The notes below the pieces were generated by a model that ran no database searches, was not told the DNA's origin, and was given only the letters and a program-made list of their open reading frames with translations. Shown here piece by piece: positions 6,103 through 10,299 of a stretch of 21,791 nt of DNA (positions are counted from its first letter, which is position 1; every line of letters starts with the position of its first letter). This DNA is from a virus. Its lineage: Duplodnaviria; Heunggongvirae; Uroviricota; Caudoviricetes. Made by a program: the position numbers and the translations under genes. The stretch lies in the IMG/VR virus record IMGVR_UViG_3300029107_000019. The stretch is one strand, 5' to 3'.

Positions 6103-6265
6103 GATTCCTCCTTGCTGCCAGTCGCAACCATTTTTTATCAACCAGGCTAGCGGTATATCCGAGCAGTGTTGGTATTTCGGATGGCTTCAGCTCAGGCTTA
6201 CGCTTACGACGATTTGATACTCTGTAGATGTGTCCGTTCATGACACGAATAAGCGGTGTAGCCAT
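6095..6265 (-). CDS. ninE: NinE-like protein (56 aa)
   Basis: Translated by hand: [56 protein letters not shown]; the YTA.L.D..WLR motif resembles lambda NinE; ATG overlaps the ybcN stop (TAATG). Confidence 0.6.
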   Translation of the reverse strand: MATPLIRVMNGHIYRVSNRRKRKPELKPSEIPTLLGYTASLVDKKWLRLAARRNHG

Positions 6266-6720
6266 TACGCCTCCTGCTTGTCGCGGAGCAGCTGGAACTC
6301 GCAGCTCTGCGGAATAGTCAGGTGGCAGCCAATATTCACCGCCCAGGCTTCAACCTTACACAGGAAGACATACATCTCTCCGGTATCAAGATCGGAGGTA
6401 TGGCGTAACGACTGGATAGTGGTGATATCACCGGTTACGACATCAACCAGGTCTTTGGTTTCATAACCGAGATATGTGTGTTTGAGAGCATCTTTTACCC
6501 AAGCTGGAGTGGCGAACGTTTTACCCCTGCTGATGAGGTATTCACTGATTTCGCTGTACCACATGTGGCTGAGTGCATTCTGGGAAAGACTGCGTTTCTC
6601 ACGCCACGGTTTAAGCACCATGCGAAAGCATTTTCCGTTCTCCAGATAAGGCTGGATCTGCTGGCCGATAGCGATGAAGTTACCGCGATGCAGTTTGATG
6701 CCATCTTGTGGTAGGTTCAC
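6265..6720 (-). CDS. ybcN: YbcN-like nin-region protein (DLP12 YbcN family, reported DNA base-flipping protein)
   Basis: 151 aa; matches DLP12 YbcN as I recall it ([15 protein letters not shown]...[14 protein letters not shown]); GTG start. Confidence 0.8.
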
Positions 6721-6907
6721 GCTTCACCTCCGTAGAGGTGAAACGCTGGATACAATATATCGCAGGTGCATTTCTGCATCTGTGGAGGGAGAAGAGAGTT
6801 TGGATTGTGTGTGCGCATAAACGTCCCCGTTTAGCGCAGAAGTCACCGGAGTTGTTCAGGCTCCGATGACATGATTATGGCGAGTTGATTATCGCAAATC
6901 AAAGGTT

Positions 6908-7264
6908 TTAATTGTGCTTTATTCCTTCAAGCATTGCCTTCATACCAACCAAAGAAATGTTTAGCTCTTCAACTTTCTCAGGGCTATATAATTCAGAATG
7001 AAGCCAATATTCTGATTTATCTAAACATCTTTTAGCCAGCTCTCGATCAAAGTCTACGACTTGGGAAGACGCTTCATACCAAAGCCTATAAAGTTTTTCT
7101 TCTTCGTTTGGGTTATTAGGCTCACCACGTTTTAATTTTTCAGTATATAAAATTGTTGAACAAATCGCAGGAGTTAATCCAGTGATTGCCCTCTGCCGCA
7201 GATCGGATTTGTTTGTTATCCACCCCAACAGACGATCTCCCATCCATGTGATAATTGTATCCAT
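6908..7264 (-). CDS. Hypothetical protein, 118 aa (AT-rich accessory gene in the nin region)
   Basis: ATG at 7264 preceded by AAGAAGGG Shine-Dalgarno; no family recognised; lower GC than flanking phage genes. Confidence 0.6.
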   Translation of the reverse strand: MDTIITWMGDRLLGWITNKSDLRQRAITGLTPAICSTILYTEKLKRGEPNNPNEEEKLYRLWYEASSQVVDFDRELAKRCLDKSEYWLHSELYSPEKVEELNISLVGMKAMLEGIKHN

Positions 7265-7710
7265 GCTTTAGCCCTTCTTAGTAAATAGTGTGTAGGGCGA
7301 CTGAAGGACCGAGTTTATGCTTTTTCGCATTGCTTTCAGTTAGTACACCGGTATCGCACCGGAAACAATCCTACGGCAAATTGGTTGTCTGACCTCTCGG
7401 TTTTTCGTGCATTAACCGATACCCACTACAGTCTCGGCGAAAGCTGCACACCCCCAGGGTGTACTGGTAGCACTCGGCACAGCCTAGCACGCCACTTTCT
7501 TCTCACTATCCAGTCTAATTTTATCCCCTAGTCAGACACTCAGATGTAGTGCTCCGCAGCGGCATGCGGGGGAATACAAAAACTCGGACAAAATTGGGTC
7601 CTCCTTTTTGAATCACTCGCGGGGATGTAGTTATTAATGTAGTGGCATAGTGAATTTGGCCACCTGAATAGAGGTGATATCATCACCTCATAGTCAAAAC
7701 AGGTGACATT

Positions 7711-8885
<1,175 letters not shown>

Positions 8886-8984
8886 CCACTACATAATACA
8901 TGGAAAAAGATCTGTTTTCAAATCCAACATTATATGGTTTCAATACCACGGGGTGGCTATGTGTTTCTCATTGTTAATTGGAAT

Positions 8985-9653
8985 CTACTGTAATCGATCC
9001 GAACGTAAATGCGGCAAAACTCGACTCCACTTATCATCCTGCCACGGCCGGAATTTTACATGTGCCGTTTCTCTGGCAAGGATTGCCTGTGCCTTATTGA
9101 GTATCTGGGGATATTCTTGCTCGATAGAAGTGAAGCGACCAGCTTCACGATGCTCCGCAACCTGAAGAAGAGGAGTAACGTTCTGGCAGGCGGTTAACAT
9201 CGCATCCCCAGCTCGCCACAACCAAGCAAGTGTGCAAAGTTCGTTATCAGTGAATTGTTTTATGATTGGGGATTGTTGAACTTCTCGATCGAGAATATCC
9301 AGAACCCAACGGCGGAACTCTTTGGCTACAGGAGTGCGGGCGAACATGGCGATCAAATGGGCTCCGCGGAGAGAGAAAACGCGTACTTTCTTCTTCAAGT
9401 TTCGAGTACTTTTCGAGGTACTCAGATCAAGTACCTCGACATCATTCTCTAAGGTACTGACTTCAAGCACTCTAGTCATACTACTGGAAAATTCGTCAGC
9501 ATATTTGTTGTAAATCATCGTGACTGCGCGACTATTCGAATACTTCAGTGCTCTTGCTAGGTTGGATGAAGTTAGCCATATTCCGGCAATATTTGCCACT
9601 GGCACTAGTGCTTCACCTTGGAAGTTCAGATCTGATGTTGCTACAATACTCAT
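8985..9653 (-). CDS. ant: Antirepressor-like protein (Bro-N/Ant-type), immI-like module
   Basis: N-terminal Bro-N-like motif (FQGEALVPVANIAGIWLTSSNLARAL) and a VRVFSLRGAHLIAMFA...EFRRWVLDIL segment; sits directly downstream of an Arc-like gene as in P22 immI. ATG at 9653 has an AAGGAA RBS; the alternative upstream ATG at 9734 would overlap arc. Confidence 0.6.
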   Translation of the reverse strand: MSIVATSDLNFQGEALVPVANIAGIWLTSSNLARALKYSNSRAVTMIYNKYADEFSSSMTRVLEVSTLENDVEVLDLSTSKSTRNLKKKVRVFSLRGAHLIAMFARTPVAKEFRRWVLDILDREVQQSPIIKQFTDNELCTLAWLWRAGDAMLTACQNVTPLLQVAEHREAGRFTSIEQEYPQILNKAQAILARETAHVKFRPWQDDKWSRVLPHLRSDRLQ

Positions 9654-9723
9654 GTCGATATTTCCTTCGCGGTTATTTTCGATAGAAGCCCCTAAGGTTG
9701 CCGCCAGTGGGGCTTCGCTGTTT

Positions 9724-9882
9724 CTAGCGAGCATGTATCCGTGTTCTAAATTTCAATGCCCATACAAGCGCCTGAACAATAGCTGCGTTCTCAGACATCC
9801 CTTCCTCCTGAGCAATTCGCTTGAATTCATCCTTCACTTTTTGCGGATAGCGAAGGGTAATTTTTACCTCTTTCTTTTCCAT
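9724..9882 (-). CDS. arc: Arc-like ribbon-helix-helix repressor (52 aa)
   Basis: MEKKEVKITLRYPQKVKDEFKRIAQEEGMSENAAIVQALV resembles P22 Arc (N-terminal beta-strand FNLR-type motif plus SxNSxI-type helix); GAGG RBS. Confidence 0.6.
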   Translation of the reverse strand: MEKKEVKITLRYPQKVKDEFKRIAQEEGMSENAAIVQALVWALKFRTRIHAR

Positions 9883-9981
9883 TGACATAACCTCATGAGG
9901 CCACAATGACACCATGAGGCCATAATGCCACCATTGAATTGATGTGGCAATATGGCACCATTCATTTTTTTGGGGGGTTCA
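9883..9981. promoter_or_regulatory. Divergent promoter/operator region between the arc-ant and mnt-like genes (Pant/Pmnt analogue)
   Basis: Perfect 10-bp palindrome CCTCATGAGG (9891-9900) and direct repeats CATGAGGCCA(C/T)AATG(A/C)CACCAT; divergent gene arrangement. Confidence 0.5.
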
Positions 9982-10299
9982 ATGGCTGACAAACAAGTAA
10001 AAGACTACGATAAGTTTAACCTCCGTTTCCCTGATGGGATGCGTGAAGCTATAGCTGAACGAGCCAAACGAAACGGGCGCTCAATGAATTCAGAAATCAT
10101 TCAAATACTCCAAGATGCCATAGAAGGAAGTTCTGAACTATCTAAACGTTTAAATTTAGTTGGGTTTATTCGAGGTGACAGAGAGATACGTGACCTGGAA
10201 GATAATGCAAGCAAACTTGCGTTGTATATCGATCATAGAACACAAGAGTTTAAACAAATTTTATTGGAAGATTTAAAATTACTCCTTAATCATGATTAA
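9982..10299 (+). CDS. mnt: Mnt-like ribbon-helix-helix repressor
   Basis: FNLRFPDGMREAIAERAKRNGRSMNSEIIQILQDAI matches the Arc/Mnt RHH signature; divergent from arc-ant. Start 9982 vs 9952 uncertain. Confidence 0.6.
   Translation: MADKQVKDYDKFNLRFPDGMREAIAERAKRNGRSMNSEIIQILQDAIEGSSELSKRLNLVGFIRGDREIRDLEDNASKLALYIDHRTQEFKQILLEDLKLLLNHD

Follow-up and report, generated by a model that had tools for sequence, protein, structure and literature searches.

Several described systems resemble a conserved RNA element of 332 nucleotides (nt) that we analyzed in a 21,791-nt stretch of viral DNA (Caudoviricetes; IMG/VR record IMGVR_UViG_3300029107_000019; hereafter, the window), where it lies on the minus strand just upstream of a gene for a protein of 118 amino acids (aa). 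Loci of the ToxIN type (type III toxin-antitoxin systems) show the same succession of a promoter (a putative one in our element), a non-coding RNA, an intrinsic terminator and a protein gene; in them, read-through sets the ratio of RNA to protein, and they are found on mobile elements and linked to phage defense. The IsrK-orf45-anrP locus of Salmonella Gifsy-1 (nin-to-Q region, Rfam RF01394) is also an RNA gene of a lambdoid prophage; it has its own promoter, a leaky terminator and a read-through transcript that carries downstream prophage genes. The put RNAs of phages HK022 and HK639, which mediate antitermination in cis, are promoter-proximal folded RNAs of lambdoid phages located upstream of terminators. 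ROOL and GOLLD, both present in Rfam, are large, intricately folded, often prophage-borne and frequently found beside variable genes. Finally, in riboswitch and T-box leaders a compact and conserved fold, similar to an aptamer, separates the promoter from a terminator or a ribosome-binding site.

The 332-nt element differs from each of these systems. ToxI is a tandem array of 34-36-nt repeats processed by the toxin, whereas here we found a single non-repetitive fold; besides, and in contrast to ToxIN, CptIN and TenpIN, the downstream proteins are not ToxN, AbiQ or CptN, RNA and protein are separable, and the window contains no terminator. IsrK is a base-pairing RNA of ~77 nt, while our element is four times larger, has a tertiary fold, and gave no sequence or covariance-model similarity to RF01394. 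The put elements, which we set apart by their description, are ~65-75 nt long, consist of two stem-loops and lie just 3' of PL and PR, so that their dimensions and build are very unlike those of our element. ROOL and GOLLD measure ~580-800 nt, belong mainly to Firmicutes and other phyla, and showed no covariance-model match to the 332-nt RNA. Regarding riboswitch and T-box leaders, the genes downstream of our element share no function, we found no antiterminator alternative and no Rfam match, and 332 nt exceeds, to our knowledge, the size of the known leaders of both kinds. Large RNAs with tertiary contacts supported by covariation are rare, and most of those known are ribozymes, riboswitches or ribonucleoprotein scaffolds. 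Prophage RNAs that were described recently, namely svsR (PMC12803456; 77 nt, located at the 3' end of cI) and the small RNAs called Pas (bioRxiv 10.64898/2026.05.13.724894; ~84 nt), also differ from the 332-nt RNA and are much smaller.

The main finding at this locus is the RNA rather than the 118-aa gene. The conserved block measures 332 nt and has sharp edges. A segment of 374 base pairs (bp) of the non-coding region is present in 159 of 5426 complete E. coli genomes (~3%), nearly always with more than 95% identity, and it is also found in Turner and IdasGreatGrand, two phages of Escherichia. At 79-82% identity, and between flanking genes that are wholly different, it is present in two Klebsiella phages and one E. 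coli prophage. By scanning IMG/VR and metagenomes with conserved blocks, and by looking up homologues of the genes carried behind the RNA (its cargo), we assembled 32 distinct variants, all of them at least 78% identical, from lambdoid prophages of Escherichia, Klebsiella, Enterobacter, Kosakonia and Obesumbacterium. Four scans of IMG/VR with different conserved blocks recovered the same set of ~62 loci, and the metagenomes contributed six further variants, each still at least 78% identical. A scan of species-representative genomes (one genome per species) gave only a chance match within a coding region of Bacteroidetes. As far as could be seen, the family is confined to lambdoid prophages of Enterobacterales. 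It resides in prophages of E. coli, Klebsiella and Enterobacter, for which genetics, lysogens and isolated phages (Turner and IdasGreatGrand, of Escherichia) can be used, and this makes its function directly testable.

The variants define a conserved RNA family with a covarying secondary structure. Folding of the alignment with RNAalifold led to a structure of two domains, and the final model, scored on 29 distinct sequences, contains 104 pairs in 19 helices, two long-range contacts included. In this model 97.6% of the cells are standard pairs, compared with 34-43% after the 3' partners had been displaced by 1-3 columns, and 18 pairs are altered on both sides. The covariation score was 0.217, against 0.04-0.06 for the displaced models, and none of 500 shuffles scored as high. 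The strongest helices (alignment columns 128-133/183-188, 134-145/149-161, 189-197/204-212, 226-231/314-319 and 265-269/275-279) all present changes on both sides, with up to five pair types at one position of helix 189-197/204-212. For pseudoknots, we trusted only contiguous helices, as covariation between isolated column pairs was swamped by clade structure.

The two domains are joined by a covarying loop-loop contact, first seen as an inverted repeat and also picked up by the helix scan. The six bases of this kissing loop are paired in 29 of 29 sequences (100%), with zero exceptions, and its pairs change in a compensated manner: pair 77-202 is AU in 19 sequences and GC in 10, and pair 79-200 is UA in 14, AU in 10 and CG in 5. 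A candidate pseudoknot between columns 91-97 and 233-239 is likewise 100% paired; six of its seven pairs are invariant, so it represents a conserved complementarity whose pairing is not provable by covariation. With its long invariant blocks in junctions and loops and the covarying kissing loop that joins the domains, the RNA has the build of a ribozyme or of an RNA that binds a protein or a ligand, and it is probably not a base-pairing small RNA. We also observed an invariant 8-bp complementarity between columns 40-47 (7580-7587) and 311-318 (7309-7316), CCGAGUUU with AAACUCGG, whose formation is incompatible with helices 3 and 4 and with helix 226-231/314-319. This pairing is used by the minimum-free-energy fold of the single sequence, is broken without compensation in the clade of loci L008, L011 and L101, and could represent an alternative conformer.

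The structure favors the minus strand, as G-U pairs make up 10.6% of the cells and, independently, the terminators found in relatives lie on that strand. When the same structure was read on the opposite strand, pairing fell to 87.0%, a control biased by the derivation of the structure on the minus strand. The coordinates of the element, its parts and its immediate surroundings are collected in Table 1.

Table 1. Features of the RNA element and its surroundings in the window (columns refer to the alignment of RNA variants)
Feature	Position	Strand	Remarks
118-aa cargo gene (PHROG 12412)	6908..7264	-	predicted five-helix bundle
Spacer, 30 nt	7265..7294	-	AAGAAGGG, Shine-Dalgarno-like motif at 7272-7279, 7 nt before ATG; no terminator
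Conserved structured RNA element, 332 nt	7295..7626	-	5' AUCCCCGCGAG to CAGUCGCCC 3'
3' domain, columns 112-328	7299..7515	-	multi-branched fold; closing helix 7510-7515 with 7299-7304
Candidate pseudoknot, second arm, columns 233-239, GGUCAGA	7388..7394	-	within invariant block GAGAGGUCAGACAACC
Kissing-loop arm 2, columns 198-203	7424..7429	-	loop of helix 189-197/204-212; partner 7546-7551
5' domain, columns 1-104	7523..7626	-	sequence almost invariant; holds AAAGGAGG and the micro-ORF
Candidate pseudoknot, first arm, columns 91-97, UCUGAC(C/U)	7530..7536	-	partner 7388-7394
Micro-ORF (open reading frame), 19 codons, TTG start	7532-7591	-	product MSEFLYSPACRCGALHLSV; 8 nt behind strong AAAGGAGG
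Kissing-loop arm 1, columns 76-81	7546..7551	-	loop of 5'-domain hairpin; partner 7424-7429
-10-like hexamer ATTAAT	7633..7638	-	6 nt 5' of conserved end; first base now from the end of the insertion sequence
IS3-family insertion sequence	7638..8893	+	ends TGTAGTGG...CCACTACA; orfA 7711-8022, orfB 8058-8885
Native upstream region of the RNA	8897..8984	-	displaced 1.26 kilobases by the insertion sequence; -35-like TTGAAA at 8916-8921 and adjoining AT-rich palindrome

Across the RNA variants, no open reading frame (ORF) is conserved on either strand. The opposite strand is open over the whole 330 nt (110 codons, no stop) in several variants, and we considered an antisense gene; it was rejected because stop codons interrupt the frame in the window and in no fewer than four further clades, no start codon opens it, and indels of 1 and 2 nt shift it. 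On the minus strand, the arrangement of the 19-codon micro-ORF behind AAAGGAGG survives even in a clade with a 2-nt deletion between the two. Its substitutions are not coding-like: no third codon position varies, and one of the compensatory pairs lies inside it, so its conservation points to a constraint at the RNA level, although it may be translated.

We then compared the element with the available catalogues. Rfam 15 gave no match in the whole window at the gathering thresholds, none between 7200 and 7700 at E-values up to 10, and none at the RNA in 12 relatives at the gathering thresholds, while ARAGORN detected neither transfer RNA (tRNA) nor transfer-messenger RNA. Tandem Repeats Finder, run on 6850-7700 with a minimum score of 30, reported nothing, and only two direct-repeat pairs of chance size (7-8 nt) were present, with no iterons. 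A full-text literature search for the invariant strings returned nothing relevant; the element may be among the 10,006 candidate structured RNAs of a bulk catalogue built from IMG/VR (PMC10690425). To judge from these comparisons, the RNA family is new and uncatalogued (not in Rfam 15).

A previous sequence-only reading of this DNA had already called attention to the region. It described 7265-7637 as more GC-rich than the gene and free of ORFs of 60 aa or more, and both statements are borne out: G+C content is ~36-38% in the gene and 48-52% in 7300-7600, and the region holds no complete ORF of that size, apart from the entry of a mechanical 104-aa ORF (7540-7854, minus strand) that starts in the insertion sequence. 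The three inverted repeats that it listed are all present in the sequence, but only acaccc/gggtgt (7446-7464) belongs to the conserved fold, as a helix that is 90.6% paired across 29 relatives. The ggtatcg/cgatacc repeat is paired in 71.9% of the cells, with its 5' arm inside the 3' strand of a helix that covaries strongly (97.8% paired), and the ccgcagcgg palindrome is clade-specific (75.9% paired). The proposal of a small non-coding RNA fits poorly with an element of 332 nt with long-range tertiary contacts, and the covariance-model scan of Rfam that it had suggested matched no family at the RNA.

Regarding the upstream flank, we compared 25 distinct contexts, 24 of them uninterrupted. Despite differences in the spacers and in the sequence further upstream, all 24 share a common layout: TTG(A/T)(A/T)(A/T), 17-18 nt, a TTNAAT-like hexamer, 6 nt and the conserved 5' A of the RNA. 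The -10-like hexamer is (A/T)T(T/A)AAT in all uninterrupted contexts but one, which has TTGAAT. This element looks like a sigma-70 promoter that would place the start of the transcript at the conserved 5' end of the RNA. An AT-rich inverted repeat abuts the -35-like hexamer, 40-60 nt 5' of the RNA start, in L069, L054, L037, L106 and L101. Its sequence varies by clade (ACCATAT-N-TGTATGGT, or ATCGAAAGA...TCTTTCGAT in L101) and its position is common to them, and it could be an operator; the upstream region of the L053/L004 type has no such repeat. Further gene-free stretches of ~800 nt were observed 5' of the RNA in prophages of Obesumbacterium and Kosakonia (L101, 2796-3637; L108, 1820-2618).

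The window provides the interrupted context. The insertion sequence, which we take to be IS911-like, has the two transposase ORFs, TG...CA inverted ends and 3-bp target duplication (TAA, at 7635-7637 and 8894-8896) of the IS3 family. Its break-point was mapped against the empty site of an uninterrupted relative (L002; E. coli 99COLEC), and it lies 11 nt upstream of the 5' end of the RNA, where the insertion has replaced the -35 region. Hence, native expression of the RNA and of the 118-aa gene has probably been lost or rewired in this copy, to judge from the position of the insertion. The window thus carries a real element that has been cut off from its promoter-like region. Outside the window, we found an identical junction in a single metagenome contig (L089); the 5426 complete E. 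coli genomes do not contain it.

On the downstream side, we classified 87 loci. In 61 of them the RNA is followed without terminator by a member of the 118-aa family, with its ATG ~33 nt 3' of the RNA. In 13 loci there is a strong intrinsic terminator and a gene for a 178-aa protein with two transmembrane segments (2-TM), and in seven a terminator and a gene for a 176-aa protein (phrog_27260). A gene for a 95-aa protein stands behind the RNA in four loci with no terminator (they have no T-run, and L003 shows a degenerate terminator-like hairpin). Of the two remaining loci, one has a terminator and the core nin gene DUF1367 (Pfam PF07105, as in L108), and the other has no terminator and something else. 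Intrinsic terminators are therefore present in 21 of the 87 loci and in five RNA clades, on the same strand as the RNA and starting 5-12 nt past it; that of L053, for instance, combines a 7-bp stem with eight consecutive T. Terminator and cargo type correlate perfectly, as none of the 61 loci with the 118-aa gene has a terminator and those with the 178-aa and 176-aa genes always do. A single RNA clade holds both the 118-aa arrangement (L024) and the terminator with the 178-aa gene (L037), which makes the 3' end of the RNA a recombination junction. The gene behind the RNA is interchangeable: the downstream genes fall into five unrelated arrangements, and all of them are orphans except the core nin gene. 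The RNA lies at the upstream border of a slot in which orphan accessory genes are exchanged, and this is a typical signature of loci of phage-host conflict.

The 178-aa family, which is widespread in the nin regions of Enterobacterales prophages, has the RNA beside a 79%-identical member and lacks it beside members that are 51%, 38% and 33% identical. UniRef calls the 38%-identical homologue an 'SMODS and SLOG-associating 2TM effector'. We considered such a SLATT identity for the 178-aa cargo and rejected it, as it was reproduced neither by a Pfam scan of 21 family members nor by a profile search of the PDB.

As for the 118-aa gene, the ORF and ribosome-binding site that the sequence-only reading had placed there are present (Table 1), and its conservation, left there as a question, is clear from homologues in Obesumbacterium, Enterobacter and another lineage. 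The statement that the protein has no recognisable family holds for Pfam and PADLOC, with no family at E-values up to 1 and no ToxN or Abi match, but not for PHROG, as it belongs to PHROG 12412 (E = 1.7e-68, annotated as of unknown function). AlphaFold2 modeled it as an all-helical five-helix bundle with a predicted local distance difference test score (pLDDT) of 83.6, and its structural neighbors are generic only. Among the complete E. coli genomes, the gene is found in 160 and the RNA in 159, co-occurring. The homologues with 69-78% identity, from the three lineages named above, all have the RNA directly upstream within differing phage backbones, which argues that the pair travels as a unit. 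We found the pair in three genera and in three clades of the RNA that have diverged from each other, and with the covariation this agrees with the earlier view of the region as a structured RNA linked to a cargo gene that is AT-rich, in the manner of a moron. A 50%-identical homologue lies beside an integrase and has no RNA. In ~61 complete E. coli genomes, an internally deleted gene (66 or 60 aa) stands behind an intact RNA with ~98% identity. Within the clade of the deleted gene (genomes H97-H106; loci L013, L015, L007 and others), we observed several single-base variants of the RNA, some of which keep their pairs by wobble while others break them. The Shine-Dalgarno motif is weak in most clades of the 118-aa gene.

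The interpretation that we favor, at a little under even chances, is that the minus strand of 7295-7626 encodes an autonomous folded RNA, behind which the cargo travels as a passenger. The cassette would be self-contained, made of the promoter-like element, the RNA and, in some lineages, the intrinsic terminator; within the nin region of lambdoid prophages, it occupies the upstream end of a slot for accessory genes. The RNA would be transcribed in the lysogen from its own promoter and would act as a folded molecule that binds a protein or a ligand, as a scaffold or a decoy. The 118-aa gene would be a passenger, co-transcribed behind the RNA since there is no terminator between them. We prefer an autonomous RNA gene because of the promoter-like element, the plain terminators of several clades, the survival of the RNA when the cargo decays, and its association with unrelated cargo or with none.

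Several observations weigh against this interpretation. The promoter is inferred from sequence, and a scan for the sigma-70 consensus does not call the -10-like hexamer, which has T and not A at position 2. The folding energy of the single sequence is unremarkable (z = -1.41), so that the case for a structured RNA rests on comparative evidence; there, phylogenetic signal inflates some of the covariation counts, as all variants are at least 78% identical, and the helices of the 5' domain are nearly invariant and, except for pair 73-84, unproven by covariation. The search for trans targets within the window gave a single perfect complementarity of 12 nt, between the RNA block GACUGGAUAGUG (columns 112-123, 7504-7515) and the ybcN messenger RNA at 6410-6421, where about one is expected by chance. 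Finally, in the 61 loci with the 118-aa gene the RNA is a mere 5' leader without terminator, and every 118-aa homologue of at least 69% identity that we looked up has the RNA ~33 nt upstream. Both facts fit a role in cis equally well.

One could argue that the RNA is a cis-acting sensor or leader, similar to a large riboswitch or T-box, that sets the transcription or translation of a cargo that may be toxic. The order of promoter, folded RNA, terminator and gene is the classic one for a leader, a same-strand gene follows the RNA or its terminator by 30-110 nt in 87 of 87 loci, and the presence of the terminator tracks the type of cargo perfectly. The compact tertiary fold is aptamer-like, the weak Shine-Dalgarno motif of most 118-aa clades points the same way, and the invariant 8-bp pairing of columns 40-47 with 311-318, which competes with conserved helices, would suit a switch. 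However, that competing helix is the one broken in the L008/L011/L101 clade, the RNA has no conserved or covarying antiterminator partner, and three of the terminator-bearing clades have no GG(C/U)GG at all. Besides, same-strand packing is usual in nin regions, the downstream genes are unrelated orphans with no common function (in one locus, only the core gene DUF1367), and both cargo families are also found without the RNA. We consider a sensor in cis, which is the main rival, unlikely, albeit with an appreciable chance of being right. The RNA might also serve as antitoxin or as regulator in a module, of the toxin-antitoxin or abortive-infection kind, whose protein effectors are interchangeable, and the sequence-only reading had likened the region to a type III system. 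The layout is that of ToxIN and the cargo genes are small AT-rich orphans, one of them the 2-TM protein whose 38%-identical homologue bears the UniRef effector name. Against this, the RNA has no tandem repeats, no cargo matches ToxN, AbiQ, PADLOC or Pfam (the SLATT label included, in the 21 members scanned), and the pairing of RNA and protein is not obligate: there is RNA without cargo (L011), there are cargo families without RNA, and many genomes retain the RNA with a deleted 118-aa gene. The type III comparison does not hold on these grounds, and such a module seems improbable in general. More speculatively, a new class of folded sensor or catalytic RNA might detect a signal of infection or stress and gate interchangeable effectors (118-aa, 178-aa and 176-aa) that are membrane-active or otherwise toxic. 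We rate this as fairly improbable; if true, it would amount to a riboregulated cassette for abortive infection or superinfection exclusion that dispenses with a protein sensor.

The remaining alternatives concern the nature of the element itself. Prophages are a known home of self-cleaving ribozymes, and a new ribozyme class would agree with the long invariant blocks in junctions and loops, the compact fold with long-range contacts and a size typical of mid-sized ribozymes. However, no ribozyme family of Rfam matches at E-values up to 10 and the sequence indicates neither cleavage site nor substrate, so this proposal is pure inference and we regard it as very unlikely. The element could instead not be an RNA, and be a protein gene on the plus strand or a DNA site (operator, origin or recombination site). 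The 110 open codons of the opposite strand in several variants and the position of the element at a recombination junction between modules would agree with this, but the opposite frame is the interrupted, startless and indel-shifted one rejected above, the compensatory changes and the G-U asymmetry indicate pairing of the minus strand as a single strand, and there are no iterons or repeats; we see scarcely any room for it. Least probable of all, and close to negligible, is that the RNA mimics a CRISPR repeat of type I-E, as an RNA anti-CRISPR (Racr- or Cracr-like). Repeat mimics of this kind have been reported in phages (PMC10651486; bioRxiv 10.1101/2024.10.29.618823). The stretch GGGGAU(A/G)AACC (columns 99-109) and its helix-1 partner at the 5' end, (GUUU)AUCCCCGC, are similar to the 3' portion of the I-E repeat of E. 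coli, GAGUUCCCCGCGCCAGCGGGGAUAAACCG. The likeness is limited to one stretch of 11-12 nt plus its own complement and leaves the other 300 nt unexplained, it scores 18-24 compared with 14.5 +/- 2 for shuffles (0-20 of 300 shuffles score as high, depending on the variant), and neither a second pseudo-repeat nor a spacing of the size of a spacer is present.

The window belongs to a lambdoid prophage similar to DLP12, read on the minus strand, and in uninterrupted relatives the prophage is located at the argU tRNA site beside intD. From high to low coordinates, the genes are an arc/ant module similar to immI of P22, the insertion sequence, the non-coding region, the 118-aa ORF, a small ORF, ybcN (6265-6720), ninE, a DUF1364 gene and rusA. 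The immI-like module (8985-10299) comprises the antirepressor gene ant (8985-9734, minus strand, with a P22AR C-terminal domain), an Arc-family gene (9724-9915, minus strand) and a divergent Arc/Mnt-like gene (9952-10299, plus strand). It holds the position that in DLP12 of K-12 is occupied by ybcL and ybcM. In phages of the Turner type, ant is reduced to a C-terminal remnant of 107 aa that adjoins the RNA.

Just 3' of the 118-aa gene, the short stretch 6850-6907 is far commoner than the cassette: 419 E. coli genomes carry it, as do phages HK639, CobraSix and KO-TP1. Within it, the scan called a promoter-like TTGATT-17-CATAAT (6902-6874, minus strand), and the stretch appears to form a conserved downstream border of the slot for accessory genes. 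Finally, the prophages that carry the RNA also contain known prophage small RNAs elsewhere, namely STnc100, and isrJ after the Q gene (L004, 156-351; L024, 8201-8401; L106, 7110-7183; L101, 7437-7512), at positions unrelated to that of the 332-nt RNA.

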